A stretch of 64,000 nt of DNA from a virus (IMGVR_UViG_3300025288_000013:32001-96000); one strand, 5' to 3'. Shown: positions 3,655 through 62,595, counted from the stretch's first letter. Notes: generated from the sequence alone by a model not told the origin. Numbers and translations are program-made.

Positions 3655-3682
3655 TAAACCCACTTATGTTCATCTTGTTACA
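3655..3682 (-). promoter_or_regulatory. ECF-type promoter TGTAACAA-N15-GTTTA
   Basis: TGTAACAA gatgaacataagtgg GTTTAT upstream of 3628. Confidence 0.75.
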
Positions 3683-3697
3683 TTACAAATATATGTT

Positions 3698-3745
3698 TTT
3701 TTTATTATATGTCGCCTATTTTATAGGGTTGCATTTGTGACAGTT
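3698..3745. repeat. 48-bp direct repeat, copy 1 (38-bp core TATGTCGCCTATTTTATAGGGTTGCATTTGTGACAGTT)
   Basis: Identical to 6481-6528; the core also occurs at 62486-62523. Confidence 0.95.
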
Positions 3746-6443
3746 AAACTATGTCGTTGCTGTTCTTGACTTTTATTGTTTTATTTAACCTTTGGTTTAT
3801 TTTTTCCAAAGACGAACCATTGTCGGAAACAGACGAATTTATATTCGTCAAAAGAGTTGACAAATTTTCTATGGCTGACAGAAGTTTAGTGCTGCCATTG
3901 GCGTCACCATTGTCTGAAACCAACGGTTGATCTGACGGTTGATCTGACGGTGCTTTGTCCACTTCTGGTATGTTTATACCATTAACAGAGCCAATCACTT
4001 CGTGTGTTACTTCGTTTATGTTTTTGTTTTGTAATTCTAATGATTTGACCCCACCAAGATTTTCCATAGCCGATGTTAGTAAATCAAATTTTTCTATGGT
4101 ATCTTTATCAAGTGTATTCAAAACAGATATGGTTTCACCAAGATTTTTGTTGAACAGCGGTAAACTTTTTGAAAACTTTGATAATGGATCAGCCATCATT
4201 TTCAATTTTACTATTGATTCGATCTCGATCAATTTCAAGCCATTCTGTAGACCAGCAAACATATAACTTATTGATAAGCCCAAATCCTTTGCATCGCTGC
4301 CTGTTTCAGATGAAGATGATAATGATGATATCAAATCAGATACAGTTTTTAGTGGGGCTGATAAATCATTAACCAAACCTATGCCCTTTTCTATGTCACC
4401 ACCACCCCAATCAAAGAATCCATCTGTTTCAGAATCAGCCCTACCAACAGATGCAAACAATGATGGTATAACATCTAAAATTGATGCTATGTTTGTTCTA
4501 ACTGTGCCTATATCAAAATCAATAACTTGCCAGGCTTTTATGCCATCTGCCAAGTCTATCAAATTTTTTCCTAAACCCATTGTAGAACTTATACCCTTTT
4601 CTACATCGCCTTGACCCCAACCAAAAAAACTTTCACCTGCTTCATCTTCTCTGCCAACAGATGCAAACAATGATGGTATAACATCTAAAATAGATTTAAC
4701 ATTTGTTCTAACCAAATTTATATCAAAATCGATGGTTTCCCACGCCTTTATGCCGTCTGCTAATTTTATCAGGTTTTCACCCATATCCATTGTAGAACTT
4801 ATACCCTTTTCTACATCGCCTTGACCCCAACCAAAAAATCCTTCGCCAGCTTCATCGCTTTTGCCAATTTCTGAAAATATGAATGGCAACGTGTTTAACA
4901 CCGTTGATACGTTGTCTTTAACTAATTCGATATCAAATGTTAAACTCTCCCATGCCTTTATGCCGTCTGCTAATTTGTGCAAATTCTCGCCCAAATCCAT
5001 AGTCGCATCTATACCATCTTCAACATCATCCCAATCAATCCCATCCTGTGAAAAAGCTTCAGCAAACGAACTTATCGAATAATTAAATTCGTCTGCATTT
5101 TCTCTTGACCACCCACCAGCATCTTTGTATGTTTCCATACCATAACCAAGAGTGGATAAAGCTAAAGCCATTGATAATATGGCTGGTATTTTAAATGGTA
5201 TTGTTAGTGTATCCTTTAGACTTATCTGATTAAATCCACCCGTTATACCAGATATTATGTTAGAAAATTTGTCCCCCTCAAAATCGCCAACCTCATTTAA
5301 TTTTTTTAATCCAAATGATAGTGGTATCAAAGAAGCACCAACCGCAGCGAACGCCAAAGCACCCAATACCATAAACCCAGCCACCACCGGTATACCAGCT
5401 AATGCATATACACCACCAAGTGCAGTTAACATAATTGGTAGTTTCCACAGCATATCACTATTGTCTTTCATAACGTCTGAAATTGTTTGTAGTGGTGACG
5501 ATATTATCCACAAAGATATACCAATTGCAGCAAATGCCAGTGACCCAAGCAATATGTTTTTTGCAAATTCTCCTGCTATACCAAAAATAATGGCTGTGCC
5601 ACCAAGTGCCAACGCTAATAATCCCAAGTTAGCCAATCCAACGTCTGCCACATTGTTGGACGATATACCTAACATATAGCTAAAAGCCAATAATGATAAT
5701 CCCATACCAAACACTGAAAGCGATCCTTTATTTATGTTATCATTGTGTTCCCCAATCAATGAAAAAACTATGGCTGACAACGCCATAAAACCAAATGCAG
5801 CCATAAGTCCGATTATACCACTACCAGACAAAGTTGTACCAAGTATTAGTGCAGATAGCCCCAAAGAGCCACTAAATGCCAGTAAACCTATACCAACACT
5901 TTTTAGTGCATCACCACCCCTATCCATACTATCCAATGTTTCTGGCGTTAGAAAAGAAAAAGCTTTTGATAATGACCACATTATTGGTATTAATAAAAAT
6001 GAACCAATAGCAGAAATGGATAATAGGGGTGTTGCGATACCTATTAGTGCAGCAGTACCCAATATACCTTTCGTTGCTGTTGATAAATCATTTAGCGATT
6101 GTATCTTGTCTTTGTCCAAATCAACCTTGTTTATAGCGTTGCTTATTGATGATATTGTAGAAGTTAATGATTCTGAATTTACAGAGAGTGATTTTGAATC
6201 TATGTCGCTTATTGATTTAACTAAATCTATTATTGATTTACTTTTTTCCTTGTCTAAACCATTTATAGATTCTATCATAGATTCTACTGAACCCGATGAA
6301 AGCGGTGAACCAACTTGACTTGGTTGGCTGCCCTGTGGTTGTTCGTTTGGTTTAGAAGACACGAATTGTTCAAGAATATTATTTAACGCATCATTTGTTT
6401 TTGATGTTTCTTCAACAATTCTTTCTAATAAGTCTATATACAT
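3744..6443 (-). CDS. tape-measure-like protein with a hydrophobic Gly/Ala-rich segment and 70-aa repeats
   Basis: 899 aa; 210-nt periodic repeats at 4381, 4591, 4801 and 5011; Trp/Phe-spaced helical repeats. Confidence 0.55.
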   Translation of the reverse strand: MYIDLLERIVEETSKTNDALNNILEQFVSSKPNEQPQGSQPSQVGSPLSSGSVESMIESINGLDKEKSKSIIDLVKSISDIDSKSLSVNSESLTSTISSISNAINKVDLDKDKIQSLNDLSTATKGILGTAALIGIATPLLSISAIGSFLLIPIMWSLSKAFSFLTPETLDSMDRGGDALKSVGIGLLAFSGSLGLSALILGTTLSGSGIIGLMAAFGFMALSAIVFSLIGEHNDNINKGSLSVFGMGLSLLAFSYMLGISSNNVADVGLANLGLLALALGGTAIIFGIAGEFAKNILLGSLAFAAIGISLWIISSPLQTISDVMKDNSDMLWKLPIMLTALGGVYALAGIPVVAGFMVLGALAFAAVGASLIPLSFGLKKLNEVGDFEGDKFSNIISGITGGFNQISLKDTLTIPFKIPAILSMALALSTLGYGMETYKDAGGWSRENADEFNYSISSFAEAFSQDGIDWDDVEDGIDATMDLGENLHKLADGIKAWESLTFDIELVKDNVSTVLNTLPFIFSEIGKSDEAGEGFFGWGQGDVEKGISSTMDMGENLIKLADGIKAWETIDFDINLVRTNVKSILDVIPSLFASVGREDEAGESFFGWGQGDVEKGISSTMGLGKNLIDLADGIKAWQVIDFDIGTVRTNIASILDVIPSLFASVGRADSETDGFFDWGGGDIEKGIGLVNDLSAPLKTVSDLISSLSSSSETGSDAKDLGLSISYMFAGLQNGLKLIEIESIVKLKMMADPLSKFSKSLPLFNKNLGETISVLNTLDKDTIEKFDLLTSAMENLGGVKSLELQNKNINEVTHEVIGSVNGINIPEVDKAPSDQPSDQPLVSDNGDANGSTKLLSAIENLSTLLTNINSSVSDNGSSLEKINQRLNKTIKVKNSNDIV

Positions 6444-6480
6444 TCTTATCTTTTGATTATATATTCATATGTGCTTTATG

Positions 6481-6528
6481 TTTTTTATTATATGTCGCCT
6501 ATTTTATAGGGTTGCATTTGTGACAGTT
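6481..6528. repeat. 48-bp direct repeat, copy 2
   Basis: Identical to 3698-3745. Confidence 0.95.
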
Positions 6529-6556
6529 CAACTACAAAAACCATAAACAAACATGG

Positions 6557-6584
6557 TGTAACAAGATTATTTATAAAATGTTTA
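6557..6584 (+). promoter_or_regulatory. ECF-type promoter TGTAACAA-N15-GTTTA
   Basis: TGTAACAA gattatttataaaat GTTTAT upstream of the guanylate kinase gene. Confidence 0.75.
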
Positions 6585-6602
6585 TACTAACAAAATTGTA
6601 GC

Positions 6603-7262
6603 ATGATAAAAAAAGAAAAAATAAGATTTGGTCTTGAAAGAATAACCAATACGCATTGTTTTATAAAAACTTATATAAATGGCGTTATAGAATATGCAAA
6701 TGTTTCTGATGGTATTTCTAGTGGGTTCAACTTTATACCAGAGGAAGAGTATGATACAATAAATCACTATTTTGTTGAAAAGAAAATTGTTCTTGTTGGC
6801 GGAGGTGCTTGTGGTAAGGATTATTACAAAGATTATATGATTGGCGTTGGGTTGATACCGGACATATCGTACACAACAAGACAAAAAAGACAAAAAGAAG
6901 TTGATGGAGTATCATATAATTATATATCAAGAGAAAAATTTGAAAGCATGATTGTTGGAGCAGAATTTTTGCAATGGAACAAATTTGGAAATGACAATTA
7001 TTATGGTACTACAAAAGAATCATTTAAAAGCAGTGATATCTTTATAATGACACCAAATGTTCTTAATTGTATGGATAACAGTGTTAGAGAAAAATTTTTT
7101 GTCATATTTTTCGACATAGACGAAGGCTTAAGAAGAGAGAGGCTTAAGAAGAGAGGTTATTCAGATAAAGATTGTGAAAAAAGATTTGATATAGATAAAA
7201 AAACCTTTGATAATTTTAATAGCTTTGATATGGTTGTAACAAATCCAAATTTTATACCTTAG
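6603..7262 (+). CDS. gmk: guanylate kinase-like protein
   Basis: P-loop GGGACGKD; SYTTRQKRQKEVDGVSYNYIS; YYGT. Confidence 0.85.
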   Translation: MIKKEKIRFGLERITNTHCFIKTYINGVIEYANVSDGISSGFNFIPEEEYDTINHYFVEKKIVLVGGGACGKDYYKDYMIGVGLIPDISYTTRQKRQKEVDGVSYNYISREKFESMIVGAEFLQWNKFGNDNYYGTTKESFKSSDIFIMTPNVLNCMDNSVREKFFVIFFDIDEGLRRERLKKRGYSDKDCEKRFDIDKKTFDNFNSFDMVVTNPNFIP

Positions 7263-8740: not shown

Positions 8741-8768
8741 TGTAACAAAATAAATCATTTACAGTTAA
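8741..8768 (+). promoter_or_regulatory. ECF-type promoter (variant -10 GTTAA)
   Basis: TGTAACAA aataaatcatttaca GTTAAT upstream of 8786. Confidence 0.55.
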
Positions 8769-8785: not shown

Positions 8786-9238
8786 ATGGAATTTACAAAA
8801 ATTATGTTTTACATAAATTTGCTTGGACAAATACAGACATATAGACTTGCTCGTGAAATATTAAAACAATCATATGAAAATGTGGGAATGTTTGATTATT
8901 ACAAACTAATTGATAACAATGGCAGAAAAATAGAGAACCCTGTCATAACCAACAACAACATAAAACTTATGTTACCAATACCAGATGACATAAGGGATGA
9001 AAAAACAATTGATATCTACATAAACGATCAAAAACAAATAATAGACGTTCTCATATACGAGGCTGGTGTCGGTTCTATGTTTTATATAACTTTTGATAAC
9101 ATGTTCACAGAAGATGATGAAAAATTGGTTGTTGTTATAAATTATAAATTAGAAATGAAAAATCTGTTGATTTCCACTCTTCTGTGGATTTTTATTCTTT
9201 TGTCTTTCCTTGCTGAATCTATGTTATATTTTAAATAA
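8786..9238 (+). CDS. hypothetical protein with C-terminal transmembrane helix
   Basis: ORF with hydrophobic C-terminus. Confidence 0.6.
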   Translation: MEFTKIMFYINLLGQIQTYRLAREILKQSYENVGMFDYYKLIDNNGRKIENPVITNNNIKLMLPIPDDIRDEKTIDIYINDQKQIIDVLIYEAGVGSMFYITFDNMFTEDDEKLVVVINYKLEMKNLLISTLLWIFILLSFLAESMLYFK

Positions 9239-10146: not shown

Positions 10147-10174
10147 TGTAACAATCTAACACTACAAAGGTTTT
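10147..10174 (+). promoter_or_regulatory. ECF-type promoter
   Basis: TGTAACAA tctaacactacaaag GTTTTT upstream of HU. Confidence 0.7.
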
Positions 10175-10221: not shown

Positions 10222-10527
10222 ATGACAAAAGCTGATTTAATTACTGGCGTAAAAGCTGCAGTAGAAAAAGAAACTGGTAAAGACGTTTCAAAAAAAATGG
10301 TAAAATCCGTAATCGATTCCACGTTGGAAGCTATTAATGGATGTATGGAAAAAGGTGAAGAATTATTGTTACAACCTGTCGGAAGATTTGGTGTAAAATT
10401 CAGAAACCCTCGTAAAGCAACTAACATGACAACTGGTGAGCCTATTGCTGTTCCAGCCAAATATGTTCCCCATTTTTCTCCAACTAGCAAATTGAAAGAT
10501 GCTGTTGCCTCACTACCTGTTGAGTAA
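10222..10527 (+). CDS. hup: HU/IHF family DNA-binding protein
   Basis: MTKADLI...GRFGVKFRNPRKATNMTTGEPIAVPAKYVPHFSPTSKLKDAV. Confidence 0.95.
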   Translation: MTKADLITGVKAAVEKETGKDVSKKMVKSVIDSTLEAINGCMEKGEELLLQPVGRFGVKFRNPRKATNMTTGEPIAVPAKYVPHFSPTSKLKDAVASLPVE

Positions 10528-10549: not shown

Positions 10550-10583
10550 AAAAGCCTATGGTAAAAATATCATAGGCTTTTTT
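10550..10583 (+). terminator. intrinsic terminator
   Basis: AAAAGCCTATG-loop-CATAGGCTTTTTT. Confidence 0.85.
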
Positions 10584-10610
10584 GTAACAATCTATTCATA
10601 AAACAGTTTA
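10583..10610 (+). promoter_or_regulatory. ECF-type promoter; the primase mRNA is probably near-leaderless
   Basis: TGTAACAA tctattcataaaaca GTTTAT; the GTTTA box ends 6 nt before ATG 10617. Confidence 0.75.
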
Positions 10611-10616: not shown

Positions 10617-11666
10617 ATGTTAAACTTACAAATAGATTTCACAAAACATGATACTGAAAATGTTGTAAAAATATCAACAGATAACATAAGAAAAGAAATC
10701 GAAAGCATATTATTAAGGGTTCACACACAATCACAAAAACAAGAAGTTGTTGATAGGGATGGCGGTTTCAATATAGCTTGTCCCTTTTGTGGTGATTCAA
10801 AAGATAACCCAAACAAAAAAAGAGGAAACATATATTTGGACACAAACACGTTCAAATGCTACAATTGTACAATATGGATGCCTCTTGAGGAATTTTTCCT
10901 AAAATTCAACTCTGATGTTGGTTTTAAAATAGCCAAGTTTGATCTTGAAAATTTTGTGTCCAAAACAAAAACAAAAATTTCGTTGTATGATATATATGAT
11001 ATAGGCAACCAATACATAGAAAGAGGGTCACTAATGAAAGAAATGAAATTGAAAAATATAGTAGACGATTATAAGACGGCAAAATATTTGGAAAGTAGAA
11101 AGATAGATATAAATGATAGAAGATTGGCTGTTAATAGTTTTTCAAGAAGTATAGTATTTTTTAATATGCATGATGATAAGGTCATAGGTTTACAAAAAAG
11201 AATACATGAGCCAACAAATGGCAACAGATTCATATCATATGATTATGGTAGCATAATGGAAAAAATTATTAAAAGTGATTATGACAAAGATAGAGCCTTA
11301 AAGATAAAACGCATATCGTTACTGTATAACATATTAAATGTTGATTTTTCTAAGAAAATTAACACATTCGAATCATCAATAGACAGCCATCATTTTACTA
11401 ACAGCATTGCGTGTTGGGGTTCAAATTCCATACTTAAATTACCAAATTGTCAGTATGGCATGGATGATGACGTTGCCGGTAGGAAAGCGTCTATAAAATT
11501 ATTAAAATCTGGCTATAAAGTGTTCATGTGGGGTGAGTTCAAACATAACAATACAATTTATCGTAATTGCAAAGATTTTAATGACATATTTAAATTAAAA
11601 CCAATAAGCCAAAAAACATTTGAAAGTTATTTAACAGATTCAGAATTAGACATAATATCATTATGA
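10617..11666 (+). CDS. DNA primase, T4 gp61-like
   Basis: Zn finger CPFCGDS...KKRG...FKCYNC; TOPRIM FESSIDS...DDDVAG...KDFND. Confidence 0.9.
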   Translation: MLNLQIDFTKHDTENVVKISTDNIRKEIESILLRVHTQSQKQEVVDRDGGFNIACPFCGDSKDNPNKKRGNIYLDTNTFKCYNCTIWMPLEEFFLKFNSDVGFKIAKFDLENFVSKTKTKISLYDIYDIGNQYIERGSLMKEMKLKNIVDDYKTAKYLESRKIDINDRRLAVNSFSRSIVFFNMHDDKVIGLQKRIHEPTNGNRFISYDYGSIMEKIIKSDYDKDRALKIKRISLLYNILNVDFSKKINTFESSIDSHHFTNSIACWGSNSILKLPNCQYGMDDDVAGRKASIKLLKSGYKVFMWGEFKHNNTIYRNCKDFNDIFKLKPISQKTFESYLTDSELDIISL

Positions 11667-12256
11667 AAAAAACAATAATATTCGACACAGAAACAACAGG
11701 CATTGTGCCAAAAGGTATGATGTACAAAGACCCAAATTATCCAAGATTATTACAACTTGCATGGGTAATATTAGATGAAGATGGGAACGAATTAGACAAA
11801 AGAAAAAACTATATAAAACCGAATGGGTTTTTAGTACCAAACACAGAATTTCACAAAGCAAATGGTTTGACACAAGAGGTGTGTGACAAAGGTGAAAACC
11901 CAATAGACGAATTGAATTTTTTGCTTGATGCTATTGAAAAATCAGAAGTTTTGTTGGCACATAATATGTTATTTGATTATTTTATAATAGCTTCAGAATT
12001 ACACAAAAACAACATAATTAGGAAAATAGAAAGGAAACCTAAGTATTGTACAATGATGTCAACAATAGATTTTTGCCAACTACCGTCACCATATGGAAGA
12101 GGATTTAAATTTCCTCGTTTGGAAGAACTTTATAAAAAATTGTTCAACGAAACTTTTGAAAATGCACATGATGCGTTTGCTGATGTAAAGGCTACCGCAA
12201 GATGCTATGTTGAATTAAATAGACTTGGTGTACCAATAAAAGAAGTATTAAAATGA
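11663..12256 (+). CDS. DEDDh 3'-5' exonuclease (DnaQ-like)
   Basis: FDTETTG, AHNMLFD, AHDAFADV. Confidence 0.9.
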   Translation: MKKTIIFDTETTGIVPKGMMYKDPNYPRLLQLAWVILDEDGNELDKRKNYIKPNGFLVPNTEFHKANGLTQEVCDKGENPIDELNFLLDAIEKSEVLLAHNMLFDYFIIASELHKNNIIRKIERKPKYCTMMSTIDFCQLPSPYGRGFKFPRLEELYKKLFNETFENAHDAFADVKATARCYVELNRLGVPIKEVLK

Positions 12257-12624
12257 GAGTACCAGGAACCAACATAATAGTTGAACAAAATAGCGATCCA
12301 AATAAGGTTATTGGTAATATCATATTTGATCATAGCAAGAAATATACAAAAAATATGGGTGTTGTTAAATACCTTAGTAAGTTTTGTGAAACAAATCGTG
12401 GAACAATTTGTGATATAAATATTGGCGATATAGTTCACTTTTCTGATGAAGCTGGTGTATATATTGACAAAAAAAACATGAAAAACATTCTATTGATAGA
12501 TTACAGAGAAATAATACTAATATCTGAATCAGAAGAAAACGAAATTTTTGTTGGCGAGGACATGAGATTTTATTTAGAAGAGGACATAGCAAACAGACAA
12601 ATGGAAAAAACATCTAATAATTAA
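12253..12624 (+). CDS. GroES-like co-chaperonin
   Basis: MRVPGTNIIVE...GVVKYL...INIGDIVHFSDEAG...LLIDYREII. Confidence 0.6.
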   Translation: MRVPGTNIIVEQNSDPNKVIGNIIFDHSKKYTKNMGVVKYLSKFCETNRGTICDINIGDIVHFSDEAGVYIDKKNMKNILLIDYREIILISESEENEIFVGEDMRFYLEEDIANRQMEKTSNN

Positions 12625-12635: not shown

Positions 12636-13919
12636 ATGAAACAAACAAAACGAACAAAAACGAACAATTTCTTTAAAAATGGTAAAATATCATTTGTAAT
12701 GGATGGTGCAGCTGGTAGTTCAGGCAAAAGCTTAATATCGTCGTATTTAGTGAAACATGCTAACAATGTTGATTTTATATTATCAGCCTTTACGCCAAAC
12801 GCAAGTCACACAGTTATAGATGATGATGGCAAAGAATTTGTTTTTAAAATTTTTGCAGGTGGTTCACAATACCACGAAAAACTAAAAGCTGTTTATATAA
12901 CAGATAATGCTGCAATAGAGTTAAAAACTCTGTGGAAAGAGATTGACTATCTTGGTATACCAAAAGAAAAGGTTAGAATTTCTCCAATGTGCATGATAGT
13001 TCAACAAATAGACATTGATTATGAAGCTGGACTGTGTGATCTTGATGGAAATTATTATTCAAAGAACGAGTTGAGGGATGGTACTGTTAAAACAGGGAGC
13101 ACTTGTTCTGGTAGTGGCACTGTTTTGGCTAAAAAGGTTCTTAGAAATAAGACACTGGTAAAAGCCAAAGATGTTGAAGAACTGAAAGAGTTTTTGTATG
13201 AAATGGATGAAATAATTTCAAGACTTGAAACAGGTGATAGAGGTTTAATGGAAATGGCACAAGGGTTTCCATTGTCAGTGAATCATCACATGTTTGCACC
13301 GCATACAACAAGTAGAAATGTTACAGTTACTAATGCTATGAATGATGCTATGATACCACCAAGATTTGCTGGTAACGTTTTAATCAACTTTAGAACGTAT
13401 CCAATCAAAATTCATAGTAATAAGTATAAATGTAACAAAACCGGTAAGTTTCTTACATGGGATGAGGTGAACAAGATGAAGACTGATATTGATTATGTTG
13501 TTGTTGAATCAAATTCTGGCGACTTTTATCCTGATCAAACAGAAATGAGTTGGGATCAAATAACCAAAGAATCTGGGTCTGAAAAGAAACTCATGGAATG
13601 CACAACACTTACAAAATTACCAAGAAGAATAGCTTCATTTAGTAAACAAAATCTTGTAGAGGCAATTAGATTCAATGACACAGGTGGTCAAATTTGGTTA
13701 TGTGTTAATTTTGTTAATTATGTTGTTTCTGGAATCTATGGTGAAAGGGAGTATTTTAACTTACACATTGACTTTGAAAAATATGAAAAACTTCACAATT
13801 GGATTCATGAAAACATAACCAGAGTTATATATGCAGACAATTCTATAGACGAAACAAGAGTTTCTCTTAAATATCTTGGTACAGGTGAAAAAATCGAAGA
13901 TAGAATAGAAATGCCATAA
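12636..13919 (+). CDS. purZ: PurZ, N6-succino-2-amino-2'-deoxyadenylate synthase (PurA paralogue)
   Basis: GAAGSSGK (Ser at the PurA Asp13 position), NASHT, GSTCSG, EMAQGF, TSR, RTYPI, NSG, TTLTKLPRR, NFVNY (in place of TKLD). Confidence 0.8.
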   Translation: MKQTKRTKTNNFFKNGKISFVMDGAAGSSGKSLISSYLVKHANNVDFILSAFTPNASHTVIDDDGKEFVFKIFAGGSQYHEKLKAVYITDNAAIELKTLWKEIDYLGIPKEKVRISPMCMIVQQIDIDYEAGLCDLDGNYYSKNELRDGTVKTGSTCSGSGTVLAKKVLRNKTLVKAKDVEELKEFLYEMDEIISRLETGDRGLMEMAQGFPLSVNHHMFAPHTTSRNVTVTNAMNDAMIPPRFAGNVLINFRTYPIKIHSNKYKCNKTGKFLTWDEVNKMKTDIDYVVVESNSGDFYPDQTEMSWDQITKESGSEKKLMECTTLTKLPRRIASFSKQNLVEAIRFNDTGGQIWLCVNFVNYVVSGIYGEREYFNLHIDFEKYEKLHNWIHENITRVIYADNSIDETRVSLKYLGTGEKIEDRIEMP

Positions 13920-13979
13920 CCAAAATCATTTCACAAAACAACGCTCATAAAATAAATAACTAAACAGTAAATCTATTTT

Positions 13980-15773: not shown

Positions 15774-15801
15774 TGTAACAAAAGTTAATATTGTGGGTTT
15801 T
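15774..15801 (+). promoter_or_regulatory. ECF-type promoter
   Basis: TGTAACAA aagttaatattgtgg GTTTTT upstream of 15837. Confidence 0.7.
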
Positions 15802-15836: not shown

Positions 15837-16364
15837 ATGAAAAACATTAAATTTAACATATCATCATTGGTGATATGGACCAGGTTTCTTTGGCTAATAC
15901 CATACAAAAAAGAAACAAAAACTTGTATTGATTCCATAACAATTGATGGTGTCGATAAAACAGCTGAAGATGGAATAAGAAGTATTGATGAAGCACTTGC
16001 AGATTGGTCTTCAATAAATCAATCTGTTAATAGGGAATTATCACAAGCCAAAGATATATGTAATAAGCTATCAAATCACATAGCCATAAAATCATGTGAC
16101 CCAATACTACCAAGTTTCAGATCTCTTGTTGCAGAATTATTTGTCGCACAAACCATTAGAGAGTTTGAAAAAGGAACAAAAATTGGTGAAAATTTGAAAA
16201 CCTTTATGTCACTAAACCGAATTGATACCAATAAAAACCTGGACATTTCTGTTTATGAAGATATTTGGGCAATAACCAAGAAAAAATTACATGTTTTTCA
16301 TAGAAACGTTTATTGTTTCAAGATGATAATGGATGATAAAATGTTTACCATAACTTTCAAGTGA
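15837..16364 (+). CDS. hypothetical protein
   Basis: ORF downstream of the promoter motif. Confidence 0.6.
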   Translation: MKNIKFNISSLVIWTRFLWLIPYKKETKTCIDSITIDGVDKTAEDGIRSIDEALADWSSINQSVNRELSQAKDICNKLSNHIAIKSCDPILPSFRSLVAELFVAQTIREFEKGTKIGENLKTFMSLNRIDTNKNLDISVYEDIWAITKKKLHVFHRNVYCFKMIMDDKMFTITFK

Positions 16365-16966
16365 TAATTATTGTGGACGACAGAAAAGACATAAATTATA
16401 AAACGGTTGAACTATTTGATGATAGTTCAACCGTTTTTATAAATAAGAATGTTGTGTCCTCTGAATACCTATCATCTGATGAAATCCAAAAATACCAAGA
16501 CAACGAATTATTTGAAAGCATAGTAAAAACGTTTTACAAAATAAATCACAAAATAAATCCAAAATATAGAACTTGTATTGATTCTATTTTAACAGATGCT
16601 TATTTAGTTAACACACCAATTTCTTACGACAATTGTAACGACTATAAAATTTTGTACAGAAGAGATAATACGTGCATAATATCAAATGGAAAAAATGTCT
16701 TAGAGGTTAATATCAACAACATTAGTATAGAACATGGCAATATAGGTTCAGAAGTTATATCATATATTTTTTCAGAGATTTACAAAATTTTAAAAAACGA
16801 CATAAATGATTATACAAAATTTTTCATTTATTTTTCAGACATTTTTAACATAGAATACAAAGATTTGTATGACAATGTGTCATATAAACATAGAACAACC
16901 ATAGAATCAACCATAAAAAACAAATTCAAGTATTTGTTTTCAAACACAGATGCAGCAATGTGGTAA
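16361..16966 (+). CDS. hypothetical protein
   Basis: GTGA overlap with the upstream ORF. Confidence 0.6.
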   Translation: MIIIVDDRKDINYKTVELFDDSSTVFINKNVVSSEYLSSDEIQKYQDNELFESIVKTFYKINHKINPKYRTCIDSILTDAYLVNTPISYDNCNDYKILYRRDNTCIISNGKNVLEVNINNISIEHGNIGSEVISYIFSEIYKILKNDINDYTKFFIYFSDIFNIEYKDLYDNVSYKHRTTIESTIKNKFKYLFSNTDAAMW

Positions 16967-16986
16967 AGCTTGGCACGATTTTTGCT
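16966..16986 (+). promoter_or_regulatory. sigma54 (-24/-12) consensus promoter, copy 1
   Basis: AAGCT TGGCAC GATTT TTGCT upstream of the sigma-like gene at 17038. Confidence 0.8.
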
Positions 16987-17037
16987 GTGTTATAGTATGA
17001 ATTTAAAACTTAACTTAAACTTAACTTAAACTTAAAC

Positions 17038-18120
17038 ATGGAACAAGAAAAAATTTATGTGAACAATTTCACAAAACTATCACAAAATTATTTTGAATCA
17101 AGATCACAAAAAGATTTTGCCAAAATTTATGCAGAAATAAGAATAATAGCCATGTCTGCAGCTAAAGGGCTAACAGTAGATTCACATGATTACGAAAGTA
17201 TAGTTGACGATATTTCTATGAAGCTTTATTTGAACTTTGATAAATATTATCAAGAAAATAAAAGTCTTTTATCTTTTGTCTTTGTTTCATGTAAACGAAA
17301 GTATTATACACTCAAGAAGACATACAACAAAAGTATTTGTGAATCAGACATGATAATAATAAATGACAAAGACGGTGGAGAAACATCAAAATTTAATCAG
17401 GCTTTGACAAATTATTATGGCGATTTTGTTGACCAAGAAAATGTGGAGGTTGATGCAGCCGATAACATGTTGCATTTATCGACAGATAGACAGATAGACA
17501 GAGTTAAAGAAATTGTTAAAGAAATGTGCTATAACGATAAAGGTGAGTTTAATGAAGACGAACATACCAAAATGATAGATATTCTTACACTAAGAAACGG
17601 CGAGTTTTCTCTTGGTGAAAATTTGGAAGAGTTAATACCATATATAAAAAATGAAGAAGTTGGAAGCGTGTCAGACTTTATTAGTCCAACCATAATTTCT
17701 AATAAATATGGTATAAAGAACAGAGCAACTGTGTCGGCAAAAAGAACAAGAGCCATAGAAAAAATAAGAAACATAATTTTGTCTGATATATCAAATTCAG
17801 AGATTTTTGACAAAGTAAATTATACAGGGACAAAAATTGTTAAAAAAGACATAAATGGCAAAATATACACACACACATATGAACTCATAGATGGTGTTGC
17901 AAATGGGGAATACAAAAAAGAAATTTTGATTAATTCAAAGAAAACAACTCTAACAATAGGAAAATTTGAAAATGGTAAAAAAATAGGCATATGGCATCAT
18001 TTTTTTGTTGAAAACGGATCTTATATGGGATATGTAGATTATAATAGTGGTAAAAGTTTTGAATATACTGATATGGACGAAACAAGTATGGAAACACGTA
18101 TAATGAAATTGTCTGTGTAA
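17038..18120 (+). CDS. phage sigma70/ECF-like RNA polymerase sigma factor with C-terminal MORN-variant repeats
   Basis: Region-2-like DFAKIY...DYESIVDDISMKLYLNFDKY...LLSFVFVSCKRKY; region-4 HTH SPTIISNKYGIKNRATVSAKRTRAIEKIR; tail GKFENGKKIGIWHHF. Confidence 0.65.
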   Translation: MEQEKIYVNNFTKLSQNYFESRSQKDFAKIYAEIRIIAMSAAKGLTVDSHDYESIVDDISMKLYLNFDKYYQENKSLLSFVFVSCKRKYYTLKKTYNKSICESDMIIINDKDGGETSKFNQALTNYYGDFVDQENVEVDAADNMLHLSTDRQIDRVKEIVKEMCYNDKGEFNEDEHTKMIDILTLRNGEFSLGENLEELIPYIKNEEVGSVSDFISPTIISNKYGIKNRATVSAKRTRAIEKIRNIILSDISNSEIFDKVNYTGTKIVKKDINGKIYTHTYELIDGVANGEYKKEILINSKKTTLTIGKFENGKKIGIWHHFFVENGSYMGYVDYNSGKSFEYTDMDETSMETRIMKLSV

Positions 18121-28208: not shown

Positions 28209-29288
28209 TTACTGTCTTTCACCATTTACATAAGATTCAACAGTGTTATCAGAATCATAAAAATCATCTAATTTATAATGTCCGTTTTTAGTTTTATTTA
28301 TGTGTTGAATAACACCACCCTCTTTGGTTGTTATTTCTATGGCTTCTTTTCTAACTTCGTCCAAATTGTTATTGTCTGATTCGTTCATTTTTATCAGTTC
28401 GTTCAACGGTTCATAATCTTCAGCATAATCACCCATAAAATCTTTCTTAAACAATACAGATAAGAATGCTCTCATATCCCCCTCATTATCGGTGCACCAA
28501 CTATCATTTTTGCTTATTATTTTTAACGCTCTATCTGTGTACTTTTTATCATATGTTGAACTAACAAAATTTTTGAAAGCATCTTTGTCCTTTTTGTTGT
28601 CTAAACAATACCACCCAGCATTTTGTTTTATTGACCTTAATAATGAATCAACAAAATTGCTATCGTTTTCCAACAAATCTTCATATTTTTCACCAGAACC
28701 CTTTGATTTGTCTGTTTGATTTGATGGATCGTTACCAAATGATGCTTCACCTCTGCCTGGAACAGTTGAAGTGGCTGATTCTGATTCAACCATTTTGGTA
28801 ATATCTTTCAATTTATTAATATCTGATTCTGTTAATTTTATCCCTCTGTTAATTTTGTTACCAATACTATCATTCTCAAGAATTTTACCAATTGCATTTT
28901 TAAAATTCGTTTCATATTTTTTCCTTAATCTCATTGACACAGGTTTATATGATTCTTTTAATTCAACCAATGCCTTTTTGGCTTCATCACCAGTTTTACC
29001 AATCAATTCTTCAGTTCCATCAAGTTCCATTTCTTCAAATAATGAAACCTTATCAGATAGTTTTGATACGTCATCAAGCATTTGAAGAAAATCATCTGTT
29101 GATTTACCATCATAATCTTCACCAAATAGATCAAAATCTTTATTATCACGTGCAAACACATTCAGCTTTCCATTAAAATTTTCAAGCATTTCATAGGTAA
29201 TATCTTTTTCACTAAATACTTTACCTCTCACATTGTTTAGTGTGAATAGTTTTGCTAATTCTTCTTTTGTTATTGATTTTGGTGTCAT
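28209..29288 (-). CDS. hypothetical acidic protein, possibly an internal head protein
   Basis: Several L/V-x-E-S/N motifs. Confidence 0.55.
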   Translation of the reverse strand: MTPKSITKEELAKLFTLNNVRGKVFSEKDITYEMLENFNGKLNVFARDNKDFDLFGEDYDGKSTDDFLQMLDDVSKLSDKVSLFEEMELDGTEELIGKTGDEAKKALVELKESYKPVSMRLRKKYETNFKNAIGKILENDSIGNKINRGIKLTESDINKLKDITKMVESESATSTVPGRGEASFGNDPSNQTDKSKGSGEKYEDLLENDSNFVDSLLRSIKQNAGWYCLDNKKDKDAFKNFVSSTYDKKYTDRALKIISKNDSWCTDNEGDMRAFLSVLFKKDFMGDYAEDYEPLNELIKMNESDNNNLDEVRKEAIEITTKEGGVIQHINKTKNGHYKLDDFYDSDNTVESYVNGERQ

Positions 29289-29306: not shown

Positions 29307-29334
29307 TAAACTTTTAAATTTGGTTTTTGTTACA
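29307..29334 (-). promoter_or_regulatory. ECF-type promoter
   Basis: TGTAACAA aaaccaaatttaaaa GTTTAT upstream of 29288. Confidence 0.75.
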
Positions 29335-33489: not shown

Positions 33490-34055
33490 TAGTAATTTAT
33501 TTTAGGATTTTCACCTTTTGGAAATTCGTTATGATCCAATGATGTTATAATAGTTCCCATTTGTGAATCGCTTGGATTATATTGTCTTCTATATTTACTG
33601 AACTTCTTTTTCATGTTTGTCATAGATTCTATACCATCAAGTCTGAACAATCTCCATCGGTTTCTTTTATCTGATACAGATACAGATTTTCTTCTTGTGA
33701 ATCTTGTTTTTATTTGTTCATCTTTACTGCTATCCATAATAACAAACGCTCTTATGTAATATCTGTCATTGTGTAAAACTTTATTACCCATTCTATAGCC
33801 TCTACCAATCGCATATGGTTCTAATAGTCTATGACCTTTACCACCATCCCTATCCTCATAATAAACTGATATGTATTCTCTGTTCTTTATTGCATTTGAT
33901 ATTTCATTTATACCAACATTTGTTCTTTCTACTCTTGGTACACCACGTTCTGTTAAAGGTATATATATGGATTTTATGAGTTCATATTCTTCTTCTGATA
34001 AATCTATGTCATTTACGCCAAAGTGGAAGTTGAATGGTTTGTATATCTTAAACAT
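33489..34055 (-). CDS. stand-alone WYL-domain protein (ATG 34055 preferred, since the promoter overlaps TTG 34073)
   Basis: NAIKNREYISVYY...RLLEPYAIG...YIRAF...WRLFRLDGIESM. Confidence 0.75.
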   Translation of the reverse strand: MFKIYKPFNFHFGVNDIDLSEEEYELIKSIYIPLTERGVPRVERTNVGINEISNAIKNREYISVYYEDRDGGKGHRLLEPYAIGRGYRMGNKVLHNDRYYIRAFVIMDSSKDEQIKTRFTRRKSVSVSDKRNRWRLFRLDGIESMTNMKKKFSKYRRQYNPSDSQMGTIITSLDHNEFPKGENPKINY

Positions 34056-34065: not shown

Positions 34066-34093
34066 TAAACCAACAGATTTGGTTATTGTTACA
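34066..34093 (-). promoter_or_regulatory. ECF-type promoter
   Basis: TGTAACAA taaccaaatctgttg GTTTAT. Confidence 0.75.
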
Positions 34094-47473: not shown

Positions 47474-48115
47474 TTATAAATATTTGTCAACCAATTCTAA
47501 AAATGCCTCATTGAATCCATTGGGAGTTTTATCACGTTCAGTTTTTGATCCAGCAATACCACATTTCATACCAAAATCAAGCATTTCTTCTCTTGTGAAA
47601 TTTTGTTTTATGAATTTTATATCAATGTCACCATTTTCTTTTGGTCTGAAATATTTTATTCCACCAATAGGTAATTTAGCAAACGCTTCATCAATTATAA
47701 CCTTTGAACTAAATTTGGATTCATCATTCTCATACAATTCATTAAATTTACAGACAAATTCAATTATGAAATCTATCGGTATTAACATTGTACCAAACAA
47801 ATCCTTATCGGTTGTAGCAATAATTTTGTGTATAGAATTACTCAAATTACTTTTGTTAATGATTCTTCTTGAAAAGGTTTCATAATTACCAAAATTATTT
47901 TTTAAAAAACTACCACCATCATCTATTTCGACAGGTTTTGTTGATAAAATGTGCATATGAAATGGAACACAGTTTTCAACATTGCTGAATTTATCGACAT
48001 TCAGCAAATCATTAAAAAGTACCCCATCGCCATAATTGTCCCTCCACACAATAGAAGATTGATTTTTAGTATTTTCAATTGGAATTAATAGTATTTTAAC
48101 TTTCTCGTTGCACAT
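47474..48115 (-). CDS. hypothetical protein, paralogue family A (start MCNEK at 48115)
   Basis: HMHILSTKPVEIDD...KIIATTD...IPIDFIIEF; the promoter at 48134-48161 fixes the start. Confidence 0.65.
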   Translation of the reverse strand: MCNEKVKILLIPIENTKNQSSIVWRDNYGDGVLFNDLLNVDKFSNVENCVPFHMHILSTKPVEIDDGGSFLKNNFGNYETFSRRIINKSNLSNSIHKIIATTDKDLFGTMLIPIDFIIEFVCKFNELYENDESKFSSKVIIDEAFAKLPIGGIKYFRPKENGDIDIKFIKQNFTREEMLDFGMKCGIAGSKTERDKTPNGFNEAFLELVDKYL

Positions 48116-48133: not shown

Positions 48134-48161
48134 AAAACTTTTATCAGTTCTATTTGTTACA
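48134..48161 (-). promoter_or_regulatory. ECF-type promoter
   Basis: TGTAACAA atagaactgataaaa GTTTTT. Confidence 0.7.
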
Positions 48162-52856: not shown

Positions 52857-53030
52857 TTAAATGTCTATGTCATTCAATATTTCCTCATAAGAATCCTTAA
52901 ACAAATTATCAATTGTTGATAGGTCTTTCATGGTTTCAATGATTTCTCTAAGTCTTACCCCTGAAGTCTTTGGGTTATCAAACTCACTTCTAAGTGAATC
53001 AATGATACTTTTTATAGTTGTCTTTTTCAT
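52857..53030 (-). CDS. small hypothetical protein (57 aa, not in ORF track)
   Basis: MKKTTIKSIIDSLRSEF...; ATGA overlap with the stop at 53027. Confidence 0.55.
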   Translation of the reverse strand: MKKTTIKSIIDSLRSEFDNPKTSGVRLREIIETMKDLSTIDNLFKDSYEEILNDIDI

Positions 53031-53254
53031 ACCAATCTTTCCTCCATATGTTCTTTTAGACGTTCATTAAGTGTCATTAATAAATTGTTTGATAATTCAC
53101 AAACACCGAACATACTTTCGAAGTTTCTTATCATTCTGTTTGATACCAATAAATGCATGTAATCATTTTTCTTATTGTTTATGATGCTTAGTATTCTTTG
53201 GAAATGATCGTTTTTTGTTTTATTGATGTTTCTTGTTGGTATTGCTGATAACAT
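53027..53254 (-). CDS. hypothetical protein
   Basis: ORF downstream of an ECF-type promoter. Confidence 0.6.
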   Translation of the reverse strand: MLSAIPTRNINKTKNDHFQRILSIINNKKNDYMHLLVSNRMIRNFESMFGVCELSNNLLMTLNERLKEHMEERLV

Positions 53255-53291: not shown

Positions 53292-53319
53292 TAAACTGCC
53301 ATATATTTAGGTTGTTACA
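53292..53319 (-). promoter_or_regulatory. ECF-type promoter
   Basis: TGTAACAA cctaaatatatggca GTTTAT. Confidence 0.75.
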
Positions 53320-57476: not shown

Positions 57477-57932
57477 TTAAATACCAAGACAACATTTTTT
57501 GAATTTTTTGCCAGAACCACAAATACATGTTTCATTTCTACCAACCTTTTTTTCGGTTCTTATTGATTCAATTGTTTGTAATAATTGTTTGTTTGTCAAG
57601 GGCGGATAGTGTTCAAGATGTTGATTCTCAAATTTGTACTCAATTATTTCTTTTTCCCATTCATTGATACTTTTTGTCTTTGGAGCAATATCATCTTTTG
57701 TTACCAATTTATCAGATAAAACGAAACCCTTTTCCTCAAGAAGTTTCTTTACTTCATCAGTCACATCACTTTGTAACAAGAATAATTCTTTACCGTTTGT
57801 GTCAACGTATACCCTTATATCTTGTTCAATTGTTGCCGCATTTAAAGTAGTCTTTCCATGACTAACTGTACCAATGTTTTTGTGTGCAATTTCTCGTGAA
57901 TCACCAACGATTGCAATAGTTTTCTTACTCAT
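57477..57932 (-). CDS. SEC-C motif protein (start probably MSKK)
   Basis: C-terminal KVGRNETCICGSGKKFKKCC. Confidence 0.8.
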   Translation of the reverse strand: MSKKTIAIVGDSREIAHKNIGTVSHGKTTLNAATIEQDIRVYVDTNGKELFLLQSDVTDEVKKLLEEKGFVLSDKLVTKDDIAPKTKSINEWEKEIIEYKFENQHLEHYPPLTNKQLLQTIESIRTEKKVGRNETCICGSGKKFKKCCLGI

Positions 57933-58044
57933 AATATGTGTTAAATATAAATTGTAAAGCGTAATATAAAATATGATATGCACAGAAAACGCCAAAAATA
58001 AGTGCCAAAAGTATTACATATTTCATTTTTAATTTCATTTTTAA

Positions 58045-59759: not shown

Positions 59760-60074
59760 TTAAAATAATTTTGGTTGTTCCATTGATTTTATTAGCTCTA
59801 TTAAAATGTCACCATGACACGATTTTGGTTTGCACCAACAACCAAGTGTTTTATCCTTTAATTCATGTAAATCGTTCAACAAATGCTTACCATCACCATT
59901 GGTTATATATAAACGATAAGATTCAATGGCTTCTTTCCTACTATTAACCATAAATTTTGCCAATGTGGCAGAATCTTTCTTATGTGTGAAAGGATTTCCC
60001 CACTTACTTGGTCTACCAATATAAACATCATATTCATCGGTTTTACAATTAACAACAAGAGTTTTATTCGCCAT
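59760..60074 (-). CDS. DUF4326 family protein (start probably MANK)
   Basis: VYIGRPSKWGNPF...ELKDKTLGCWCKPKSCHGDIL. Confidence 0.85.
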   Translation of the reverse strand: MANKTLVVNCKTDEYDVYIGRPSKWGNPFTHKKDSATLAKFMVNSRKEAIESYRLYITNGDGKHLLNDLHELKDKTLGCWCKPKSCHGDILIELIKSMEQPKLF

Positions 60075-60179
60075 TGTTTTAGTTATTATTTTCATTAGAA
60101 ATAAGGTCAAAGAATTTAGGTAGACACCATAATTATTTTTACCTTTCCTAGAATTCCTCAATTCAAGGTTTATGATTTA

Positions 60180-60207
60180 TAAACCATAACAAAACAGATT
60201 TGTTACA
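60180..60207 (-). promoter_or_regulatory. ECF-type promoter
   Basis: TGTAACAA atctgttttgttatg GTTTAT. Confidence 0.75.
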
Positions 60208-61203: not shown

Positions 61204-61416
61204 AACCCCAAGAGTAATTCCAAGAAATAAAATAACTATTATTGATACCACATATTTGATATTTAATTCTTGTCTGACCCATTTTCTTCTGTTTTTTGTG
61301 AAAGAAAAAAAATTGTATACACAATAAAATGAAATAACAAATAAAATTATGAACAATAACACTAACATCATAAACAAAATAATGATACAACAAACAAGAC
61401 AGTTCTTGTATACCAA
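61192..61416 (-). CDS. small membrane protein
   Basis: Two hydrophobic segments. Confidence 0.45.
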   Translation of the reverse strand: MVYKNCLVCCIIILFMMLVLLFIILFVISFYCVYNFFSFTKNRRKWVRQELNIKYVVSIIVILFLGITLGVLLN

Positions 61417-61787
61417 TCAAATGAAAATATAGAAGTTGTCGTAGTTGATCTATCAAACCAGCCTTTCAAATAAACTGTATTGTTTGATAAAATTTTTCTT
61501 GTTTGATAATAAGCACCATCATGAATAAATGGAAATGATAAAACAAAAGCAATAGAATAATAAACTGTATCAATAATACCATGTGATACGTATATGGCTA
61601 ATATGAGTGGCGTAGCCCATAAAATTCTAACAAAAGTAAAAAGAATATGTATGTTGAATTTCCATTTATCTTTGAATTTTTTATCAAAATCCGCATCATC
61701 ATGAAAAATTTTGGCTTCAATTATACCAAAAGATAATGAAAACCAAATCCAGGTAAAAAAACATATATACATATTATATTGCATCAT
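61368..61787 (-). CDS. membrane protein
   Basis: Multiple TM helices; FPFIHDGAYY. Confidence 0.6.
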   Translation of the reverse strand: MMQYNMYICFFTWIWFSLSFGIIEAKIFHDDADFDKKFKDKWKFNIHILFTFVRILWATPLILAIYVSHGIIDTVYYSIAFVLSFPFIHDGAYYQTRKILSNNTVYLKGWFDRSTTTTSIFSFDWYTRTVLFVVSLFCL

Positions 61788-61794
61788 GATTTAT

Positions 61795-62106
61795 TTATTT
61801 TTTGCTCCATATTTTACTTGGTCTAACATCTATTAACAATTCTCCGAAATGTAATTTCATATGGTTTGTTAAAGACGTAAGTTTTCTGTTGTCTTTACCA
61901 ATCATAATTGATGGTTTATGACTTGTTATTTTTATAACAACTTTAGATTTCTTTTTATAAACTTTGACAGACGTAACATATTGATAAGCCAATAAGTCAT
62001 TTTTTTCCCAAAAATTCATTAATTCAACTCTTATTTGTGCTGAATCAATACTATTAGATTTCCATGTTTTGATGAATGATTTAATTGAACGTTTTAACCT
62101 TTCCAT
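61795..62106 (-). CDS. type II KH-domain protein (ribosomal protein S3 N-domain-like)
   Basis: IKITSHKPSIMIGKDNRKLTSL resembles S3 TIHTARPGIVIGKKGE. Confidence 0.55.
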   Translation of the reverse strand: MERLKRSIKSFIKTWKSNSIDSAQIRVELMNFWEKNDLLAYQYVTSVKVYKKKSKVVIKITSHKPSIMIGKDNRKLTSLTNHMKLHFGELLIDVRPSKIWSKK

Positions 62107-62134
62107 GTTTTAATAAATGTAGTTTAATCTTTTA

Positions 62135-62298
62135 ATTTTATTGAAACGAACAAAAATTGGGCAATTTTGTTCGTTTCAATTGGCTGTCGCACTATTTTAG
62201 TTCTATAAGCACATGATACGCTATGTTTATACTAAATTTCAAGTTTGCTACAAGTAAATTATCTTTGTATCAAGACAAAATACCAACTATCAATTCGT
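62135..62298 (-). ncRNA. candidate structured ncRNA (about 160 nt)
   Basis: ECF-type promoter upstream, hairpin downstream, no ORF, nested complementary segments. Confidence 0.4.
62140..62180 (-). terminator. strong hairpin / probable terminator
   Basis: ATTGAAACGAACAAAA...TTTTGTTCGTTTCAAT inverted repeat. Confidence 0.7.
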
Positions 62299-62304
62299 GT
62301 ATTA

Positions 62305-62332
62305 TAAACTATCCATATCTATTGTTGTTACA
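62305..62332 (-). promoter_or_regulatory. ECF-type promoter
   Basis: TGTAACAA caatagatatggata GTTTAT. Confidence 0.7.
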
Positions 62333-62485
62333 GCATATCTAACATATAAGGTAATAATTTGATTATAAAAATAGCACAATCAAAACAAGGGTCAAATTGT
62401 TTTGAAAATAATAAAACACCAAAATCAAATTTGTGATTGCTTTTGAAATAATGCCATGATGTATGTGAGTTATTTTTTTTATTTT

Positions 62486-62523
62486 TATGTCGCCTATTTT
62501 ATAGGGTTGCATTTGTGACAGTT
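62486..62523. repeat. 38-bp repeat core, copy 3
   Basis: Identical to 3708-3745 and 6491-6528. Confidence 0.95.
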
Positions 62524-62567
62524 CTATATGATTAGAAAGATTCTGCCTTTCTTGAGTGTTTTTTACT

Positions 62568-62595
62568 AAAACCAACAATATTTGATTTTGTTACA
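62568..62595 (-). promoter_or_regulatory. ECF-type promoter
   Basis: TGTAACAA aatcaaatattgttg GTTTTA. Confidence 0.65.

Follow-up and report, generated by a model that had tools for sequence, protein, structure and literature searches.

Which specificity factor of RNA polymerase reads a two-part sequence that recurs with unvarying spacing, mostly a few dozen bases before a gene, in a large and almost unannotated phage? The question is raised by TGTAACAA-N15-GTT, a motif found throughout a 64,000-nucleotide (nt) stretch of DNA (hereafter the window; coordinates refer to it unless another sequence is named) that represents bases 32001-96000 of the virus contig IMGVR_UViG_3300025288_000013. This contig is a linear IMG/VR entry of 110,222 bp with a G+C content of 30%, is estimated by CheckV to be 64% complete, and belongs to a large, uncultured, T4-like phage with a T4-type terminase large subunit (TerL). 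An earlier note on the window had taken 13 copies of the motif for a middle-gene promoter class read by a dedicated sigma factor of the extracytoplasmic function (ECF) type, and had pointed to the product of 17038-18120 as that factor. A phage promoter class of ECF type is supported by our computations through the sigma family itself, the register of the boxes, the boxes of related phages and the functions of the genes concerned. We consider it probable that TGTAACAA-N15-GTTT(A/T)T is a phage-private class promoter read by the phage's own ECF-type sigma factor.

The motif itself is far in excess of chance. An exact-match search of the window recovered all 13 copies of the earlier note and one that it had missed, at 57772-57797 on the plus strand; the minus-strand coordinates of the note proved to be 2 nt too low, from the counting of a 28-nt unit. 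The 14 copies compare with a mean of 0.21 in 100 dinucleotide-preserving shuffles, none of which reached 14 and the richest of which held 2. The first box alone is present in 26 copies, against 8.9 expected, and 12 of these have no GTT at N15, which is about the number that chance would supply; the note's remark that TGTAACAA copies inside open reading frames (ORFs) mostly lack the second box therefore holds. Across the whole contig there are 22 copies of the full motif, and a scan of all spacings from 8 to 23 nt returned these 22 at N15 and between 0 and 3 at each other spacing, in agreement with the invariance that had been claimed. A genome-wide motif search, which the note had proposed as a check, gave the same answer without prior assumptions: among all pairs of 5-mers and 4-mers at spacings of 12-20, GTAAC-N17-GTTT was the top dyad. 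Alignment of the copies extends the consensus to TGTAACAA-N14-(G/A)-GTTT(A/T)T followed by A-rich sequence, with G (10), A (9), T (2) or C (1) as the base before GTT, and the GTTTWT form is present in 20 copies in 110 kb. Roughly six variants with one mismatch occupy equivalent positions. The exact 14-base pattern, when scanned against IMG/VR, gave single chance matches only among the matches listed.

The placement of the copies is equally regular. For 19 of the 22 copies, the distance between the motif's first base and the start of a co-oriented ORF is 34-76 nt, with a mode of 45-46 nt (eight copies) and a value of exactly 34 nt in two. The genes behind the motif serve replication, nucleotide metabolism and DNA modification; those outside the window include an HD-type dNMP phosphatase, an HNH endonuclease, SSB, a family-B DNA polymerase and a C5 cytosine methylase.

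The arrangement of the two boxes recalls ECF promoters in its register. All 22 copies carry TGTAACAA, and with it the conserved AAC of a -35 box; counted from AAC, the motif reads AAC-N17-GT(T), in which GT lies at the same distance as in the classical AAC-N16-CGT. The note had called this geometry the hallmark of ECF promoters, and the register does stand, although the second box is GTTT and not CGT. TGTAAC is the -35 box of SigX. More generally, ECF promoters share an AAC at -35, have -10 boxes specific to each group and stay close to consensus (PMC5758882). Since -10 boxes are group-specific, the GTTT box is still compatible with the wider ECF class.

The candidate for the cognate sigma factor is the 360-aa product of the plus-strand gene 17038-18120, in which a sigma2 domain (residues ~7-99) and a sigma4 domain (~147-252) are joined by a linker and followed by MORN repeats (~259-360). 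The protein alone gave no Pfam or PHROG match with hmmscan, and it is its family that identifies it. It has three close homologues, one of which bears the JGI name of a sigma-24 protein, and an exhaustive profile search with the sigma gave 66 matches, about 25 of them to the N-terminal 170 residues. A profile of the 23-member family, compared with the PDB, matched SigK (4.3e-6, over profile positions 26-93, the sigma2 part), Bartonella RpoE/NepR (5uxx; 8.2e-6), Rhodobacter sphaeroides SigE (1.5e-3) and SigW (0.012), while its C-terminal part matched the MORN repeats of SET7/9. Taken singly, eight of the 23 members reach Sigma70_r2 (best 8e-9), two reach Sigma70_r4_2 and 16 reach MORN_2. Moreover, homologues match the sigma70-ECF model TIGR02937 nearly end to end (to 164/165, at 1e-9 to 3e-8) and also match TIGR02985, the Bacteroidetes ECF subfamily, in both cases below cut-off. 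Two further searches were negative: tblastn of the sigma against phage records gave no match, and no loci related to the sigma alignment or to a close homologue were found in viral and metagenome contigs.

Structural prediction leads to the same family. The AlphaFold2 (AF2) model of the 360-aa protein (mean pLDDT 80, pTM 0.42) contains helical domains at 7-99 and ~147-252 and a domain of beta-hairpin repeats at 259-360; the first domain begins at about residue 7, and the poorly defined linker of residues 100-146, at pLDDT 45-59, would be too short to be a sigma3 domain. In an exhaustive structural comparison with VIA-align the best matches were CnrH (Z 9.6), SigW (9.5), SigK (9.3), BldN (9.0) and AlgU (8.4), and the full-length fold matches were two-domain ECF sigmas. 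The sigma2 fold superposes on SigW with a root-mean-square deviation (rmsd) of 3.3 over 90 aa, and on the -10-recognition domain of SigC with a Z of 8.5. Residues 147-252 match region 4 of sigmaE bound to -35 DNA (2h27) over 69 of 69 residues (Z 6.2, rmsd 2.6), and the C-terminal tail matches MORN proteins. A Foldseek search of the PDB with the whole model gave weak matches only (best E 0.01), because its three domains are loosely arranged. The first domain also matches T4 gp55 (7d7d_F, Z 9.0), so its fold alone cannot separate an ECF sigma from one of gp55 type; it is the presence of a sigma4 domain that tells the protein apart from a gp55-type late sigma. The family profile, the matches of the homologues and the modelled fold thus bear out the proposal that 17038-18120 encodes an ECF-like sigma factor.

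Three relatives that encode this sigma each have a form of the box peculiar to their lineage, with the spacing kept. Of the cultured phages, Flavobacterium phage MaF61 (PQ858689), which grows on Flavobacterium sp. B330, is the closest; its TerL is 40% identical, and it shares with the contig an adenylosuccinate-synthetase-like (PurZ-type) gene beside TerL. Its sigma homologue, the product of ORF 67710-68411, is 238 aa long and has no MORN tail (hidden Markov model E 1.5e-12; reciprocal phmmer 1.5e-12). TGTAAC-N17-GTT is found in MaF61 at chance level only; the most enriched word upstream of its genes is TGCAACA, and its top genome-wide dyad is GCAAC-N16-CATT. The motif TGCAAC-N16-CATT has 40 copies in that genome, none at any spacing of 10-19 other than 16 and at most one at the others tested, and the majority stand 30-80 nt ahead of the start of a gene. 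The registers can be written side by side as AAC-N16-C-ATT in MaF61, AAC-N16-R-GTT in the contig phage and AAC-N16-C-GT in the classical case. In MaF61, gmk carries a promoter of this class, and the sigma gene is located downstream of gmk.

A second relative, the complete 129-kb genome IMGVR_UViG_3300035698_031678 (G001; terminal repeats, TerL 38% identical), carries a sigma homologue that has the MORN tail (E 7e-81). Here 10 sites of the form GAAAC-N17-ATT fall 30-80 nt ahead of a co-oriented start, where the ten other spacings of the same pair give 0-4 sites (mean 1.6), and an unbiased scan for spacing peaks in upstream regions placed AACC-N16-ATT first. One of these sites stands directly before the sigma gene, and GAAAC boxes precede seven of 13 orthologues of class genes, as compared with 24% of all genes in that genome. 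A third relative is an 11-kb contig (L140) with a TerL 57% identical and a G+C content of 41%. It contains exactly three strong matches to the motif matrix of our contig, with boxes TG(T/C)AAC, which lie before the HU gene (4246, minus strand), before the homologue of a 150-aa ORF (5617, minus strand) and after the homologue of an 899-aa ORF; all three are the same places as copies in the contig phage.

A distinct class of sequences marks the late genes. Enrichment of k-mers upstream of ORFs in the contig yielded, among further classes, the box (A/T/G)ATAAATA at 20-40 nt before TerL, the portal homologue, head-closure and baseplate wedge genes and many large unannotated ORFs; it is a box of the T4 late-promoter type. 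Examples in the window are at 13951, 19672, 27488/27504 and 9234 on the plus strand and at 22251, 27446, 32559, 8785 and 44069 on the minus strand. The same late-box enrichment (GATAAATA / ATAAATA) is seen in MaF61 and G001, and an ATAAATA-type box also in G002, a 246-kb genome whose sigma homologue is more canonical-looking. The bipartite motif is unlike a gp55 late promoter, which is a single TATAAATA-like box near -10 without a -35 box. The gp55 PHROG family matches G002 at 1.2e-11 and MaF61 weakly, and an iterated search joins an ORF of G001, such that a gp55-like gene and an ECF-like gene are both found in MaF61, G001 and G002, which are complete or nearly so. Because both sigmas are present in these genomes along with a separate late box, the bipartite class can be assigned to the ECF-like sigma, and the genes it serves are pre-late ones. 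The simplest assignment leaves the single late box to the gp55-like sigma, as T4 does, and gives the bipartite box to the ECF-like sigma, which has a sigma4 domain. The class of individual genes is also largely conserved. For orthologues of the contig phage and MaF61 in which an assignable class lies directly upstream in both, three are ECF-type in both phages, five are late in both, one is ECF-type in the contig phage and late in MaF61, and none shows the reverse, an agreement of eight in nine.

These observations suggest a mechanism, of which we infer the link between sigma and box, the position of the transcription start and the temporal order. The 360-aa sigma would bind the core RNA polymerase of the host; its sigma4 domain would read the -35 box TGTAAC(AA), and its sigma2 domain would read and melt the -10 box (G/A)GTTT(A/T)T, 17 nt past AAC. 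Transcription would start a few bases past the second box and yield very short leaders, the ATG typically lying 45-46 nt beyond the motif's first base. The class would turn on pre-late ("middle") functions, namely DNA polymerase B, SSB, the primase-exonuclease-Cpn10-PurZ operon, HU and guanylate kinase, together with the dNMP phosphatase, the C5-methylase and the WYL and HNH proteins; two small non-coding RNAs would probably belong to it as well. The separate (A/T/G)ATAAATA late box would serve the genes for packaging and for the virion, presumably through a gp55-like sigma.

Several points weigh against this model and temper our confidence in it. The signal of the protein itself is weak, at E 0.013 and 12.5 bits for Sigma70_r2 (cut-off 24) and E 0.007 and 16 bits for TIGR02937 (cut-off 42.9); it falls below every curated cut-off and is thus a divergent relative rather than a curated member of these families, and its naming as a sigma rests on the family profile and on a model with a pTM of 0.42. 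The second box, (G/A)GTTT(A/T)T, differs from the CGT-type -10 of the SigW/X/M and RpoE groups. Most ECF sigmas autoregulate (PMC5758882), but the copy nearest to the sigma gene, at 15774, lies two ORFs upstream, and between the two are the hairpin at 16400-16437 and, at 16971, a sigma54-like box. No anti-sigma partner was identified, the ORFs neighbouring the sigma gene being without family matches. No bipartite motif was found in G002, where a dispersed repeat dominates the dyad statistics. An ORF behind the motif is missing for three of the 22 copies. Finally, the contig being about 64% complete, a second phage sigma could be encoded in the part of the genome that it lacks.

What else could read the boxes? 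An unlikely alternative, and the one that best survives the evidence, is that the phage exploits an ECF sigma of its host, probably a member of the Bacteroidota, while the phage sigma does something else. As a -35 box TGTAAC is common among ECF promoters, individual Bacteroidota genomes do contain conserved TGTAACC...CGTA sites, and the phage sigma family is closest to the Bacteroidetes subfamily TIGR02985, so that host and phage specificities could overlap. The stronger argument against a host factor is that the box covaries with a phage gene, reading TGTAAC/GTTT, TGCAAC/CATT or GAAAC/ATT according to the sigma-bearing lineage. The exact motif gave 51 matches in 301 Bacteroidota genomes against 38 for the control, which is no more than control level, the host not being knowingly among those sampled, and the maximum in any one of these genomes was six, a repeat family, against the 20 GTTTWT-form copies in 110 kb of phage DNA. 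TGTAAC-N16-CGTA was not above control in 61 genomes; both of these are bulk counts, blind to small degenerate regulons. Moreover, a stress-gated host sigma would be a fragile means of expressing replication genes. In one Bacteroidota genome (G276), five near-identical copies of TGTAACAAAATCGCCTCTATTTTGTTTAT on several contigs form a dispersed repeat that matches the motif by chance.

It is quite unlikely that sigma and box have been wrongly paired, such that the 360-aa protein reads (A/T/G)ATAAATA or another class and the bipartite box is read by another phage factor, perhaps one from the third of the genome that the contig lacks. This idea draws on the sigma2 domain, which matches T4 gp55 as well as it does ECF sigmas, and on the fact that no gp55 homologue was detected in the contig; since the contig is 64% complete, this absence carries little weight. 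The sigma4 domain, which a late promoter with no -35 box has no need of, argues the other way, as do the two sigmas and two classes of MaF61, G001 and G002, and only one ORF of the contig, 17038-18120, is detectably Sigma70_r2-like.

We regard as very unlikely a third possibility, sigma appropriation, in which TGTAACAA would be the site of a MotA-like activator and the second box a weak -10 element for the primary sigma of the host. The phage is T4-like, T4 runs its middle class by MotA/AsiA sigma appropriation (PMC2988021), and the distance from motif to gene start is about right for such a system. Nonetheless, MotA_activ was not found in the 64%-complete contig, and the second box resembles neither the Bacteroidetes sigmaA -7 box TAnnTTTG nor TATAAT, of which the former shows no enrichment upstream of genes and sigma70-type promoter matches are at shuffle level. 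The AAC-N17-GT register and the near-invariant boxes are, moreover, typical of ECF promoters. Lastly, a non-promoter repeat serving replication, packaging, recombination or a repressor is highly improbable, for nothing specific speaks for it beyond the three copies with no downstream ORF, while the strict direction with the downstream gene, the fixed distance to the start codon, the two boxes with one spacing, the intergenic placement and the retention of sites before orthologous genes in relatives whose surrounding sequence has diverged all speak against it.

The preferred reading, a phage ECF-type sigma with a promoter class of its own, can be followed from gene to gene in the window, where the gene names given by the earlier note (Gmk, HU, primase, RNase_T-type exonuclease, Cpn10, PurZ-like, WYL and glucosaminidase) were confirmed. 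On the minus strand at 3657-3682, a copy lies 54 nt, counted from its first base, from the ATG of the glucosaminidase gene 3158-3628, with a MazG-like PRA-PH protein (2348-2812, minus strand) downstream in the same operon. Five copies follow on the plus strand in the next 13 kb. That at 6557-6582 precedes the guanylate kinase gene 6603-7262 (ATG at 46 nt), that at 8741-8766 a 150-aa ORF at 8786-9238 (45 nt) and that at 10147-10172 the HU gene 10222-10527 (75 nt). The copy at 10583-10608 stands directly after a hairpin, with its ATG at 34 nt, and heads an operon of primase (10617-11666), RNase_T exonuclease (11663-12256), Cpn10 (12253-12624) and PurZ-like protein (12636-13919). The copy at 15774-15799 adjoins the stop codon of TerL and lies 63 nt from the ATG of a 175-aa ORF at 15837-16364; its transcript possibly continues on toward the sigma gene. 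Beyond these, on the minus strand, 29309-29334 precedes a 359-aa ORF with no assigned function at 28209-29288 (46 nt), 34068-34093 a WYL-domain protein at 33489-34055 (38 nt), 48136-48161 a 213-aa ORF at 47474-48115 (46 nt), the copy itself overlapping the 3' end of a 953-aa ORF, and 53294-53319 a 75-aa ORF at 53027-53254 (65 nt). At 60182-60207, also on the minus strand, the start codon at 46 nt is TTG and the gene (59760-60161) encodes a DUF4326 protein.

The remaining copies have no such gene. The additional one at 57772-57797 (plus strand) lies antisense within the ORF 57477-57995, has GTTTGTG as its second box and no co-oriented ORF downstream, and is either a chance match (about 0.2 are expected per window) or an antisense promoter. 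The two minus-strand copies at 62307-62332 and 62570-62595 both fall within 62107-62963, a region of about 850 nt that holds no convincing ORF and matches no Rfam family, and here the note was right to place them before non-coding sequence. Behind the first, about 190 nt lack an ORF and terminate with a long hairpin (~62140-62184), and 226 nt separate the copy from the start of the next gene (61795-62106); it is a candidate promoter for a small RNA of about 160 nt that would end in the hairpin, or for a long leader. No convincing ORF lies behind the second, which makes it a candidate source of a non-coding transcript. Outside the window, the copies at contig positions 103347 and 104373 (both minus strand) precede the C5-methylase gene and the small ORF that comes next, and have almost identical spacers (cacataaacattgtR); because the spacers are so similar, a recent local duplication is suggested.

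The leaders of these genes have features of their own. At the two copies with a distance of 34 nt, 10583 (primase) in the window and 24053 (minus strand) in the contig (HNH), the ATG lies 4 nt past GTTTWTW, and the same distance recurs at variant sites at contig positions 21474 (minus strand) and 108523 (plus strand). These few mRNAs would probably be leaderless or nearly so. The word AACTTAA(A) recurs in many leaders just before start codons, for example before 52779, 53254 and 54715, and the leader of the sigma gene (17003-17037) holds four tandem copies; a possible role for the word is to signal translation initiation in a host that does not use Shine-Dalgarno sequences.

Around the sigma gene there are signs of other control elements. 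The hairpin at 16400-16437 has a perfect 16-bp stem, is followed at once by TATAAATA at 16438 and lies inside the predicted ORF 16361-16966; hairpin and box may act as a terminator and a late promoter, and 16361-16966 could be a mistaken ORF call. A sigma54-like 22-mer, TAAAGCTTGGCACGATTTTTGC, has nine copies in the contig, mostly before small ORFs. Six are in the window, at 16971, 51925, 52583, 52828, 54766 and 63353, and that at 16971 immediately precedes the sigma gene. In MaF61 a partial counterpart, AAAAGCTTGTACGATT..., stands at 68492, 52613 and 50479 (all minus strand), one of these sites being just upstream of the sigma gene; this version is without the -24 GG and the -12 TTGC. TGGCAC-N5-TTGC is absent from G001 and G002. 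A sigma54 reading of the element deserves a second look. A phage RNA polymerase was also considered as the reader of the bipartite boxes, but one of T7 type was not found in the 64%-complete contig, in a search whose own control came out empty.

As for the phage itself, its DNA is carried by metagenomes from groundwater and aquifer. About 92% of the contig is coding by a crude ORF call; no Rfam families or tRNAs were found in the window, and no nucleotide-level relatives among phage records in a megablast search with 20 kb. The HU protein is uninformative about the host, since its best matches are at most 42% identical and scattered over several phyla.

The model has several implications. It supplies a readable transcription map for large phages that are almost unannotated, distinguishing pre-late from late genes, marking where transcription units start and singling out the ORF that would act as the switch. 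It suggests that T4-like phages beyond the enterobacterial clade handle their middle genes with a sigma of their own and not by sigma appropriation. The sigma/promoter pairs are lineage-specific and thus candidate orthogonal expression parts for Bacteroidota, and since MaF61 is in culture the model is directly testable. A sigma factor brought in by the phage is a known strategy, and its appearance in this little-studied phage group is moderately surprising. A bolder version, which we put forward tentatively and think doubtful as a whole, is that a lineage of T4-like phages infecting Bacteroidota, to which the contig phage, MaF61 and related IMG/VR genomes belong, swapped MotA/AsiA for a private ECF sigma, whose sublineages then hold orthogonal pairs (TGTAAC/GTTT, TGCAAC/CATT and GAAAC/ATT), with the MORN domain, present in most members, as a cis-acting regulator or tether that times the switch. 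Since these phages carry PurZ, their promoters could possibly contain 2-aminoadenine in place of adenine.

How does this arrangement compare with known systems? We came across no publication that deals with the promoters or sigma factors of Flavobacterium phages, and the MaF61 paper is silent on them. Among bacterial factors, the system resembles ECF group 4 (Bacillus subtilis SigW, SigX and SigM, Escherichia coli RpoE; PMC5758882) in its sigma2-plus-sigma4 factor, its -35 AAC, its rigid spacer with GT 17 nt past AAC and its copies near consensus. It departs from that group in a -10 box of (G/A)GTTTWT in place of CGT(A/C), in a phage-encoded sigma that lies below the family cut-offs and has a linker of about 45 aa and a C-terminal MORN domain, in the absence of any anti-sigma found, and in a regulon of phage replication genes rather than of envelope stress. 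By analogy with ECF groups that have C-terminal extensions, the MORN domain (~259-360) may be a built-in regulatory or tethering module. The ECF41 group (PMC3426412) likewise joins an ECF core to an extra C-terminal domain in place of a separate anti-sigma, but the extension here is a repeat-variant beta domain of MORN type, found in 16 of the 23 members, and the MaF61 homologue does without it.

Among phages, T4 similarly expresses replication and nucleotide genes ahead of gp55-dependent late genes and has a conserved box near -30 in its MotA/AsiA-dependent class, whereas in the contig phage no MotA was detected and we propose replacement of the sigma, not remodelling of the primary one. In phiEco32, gp36 is a distant sigma homologue that serves middle and late promoters with the consensus AATGTA centred at -11.5 (PMC12276001). 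It is comparable as a phage sigma homologue that works on host core RNA polymerase, with its N-terminal domain on the -10 and its C-terminal domain on the -35 element, and that uses many near-identical phage promoters after the early phase. However, gp36 serves both classes, with gp79 as a cofactor, whereas here the box is bipartite and a separate late class of T4 type exists. SPO1 gp28 and gp34 and T4 gp55 are the standard examples of phage sigmas (PMC9429907), and SPO1 runs a relay from host sigmaA to gp28 and then to gp33/34 (PMC9429907, PMC13401047). The proposed system is like that relay in giving one phage sigma to the middle class and another to the late class, and unlike it in belonging to another phage lineage, infecting another host phylum and using a gp55-like factor for its late genes.

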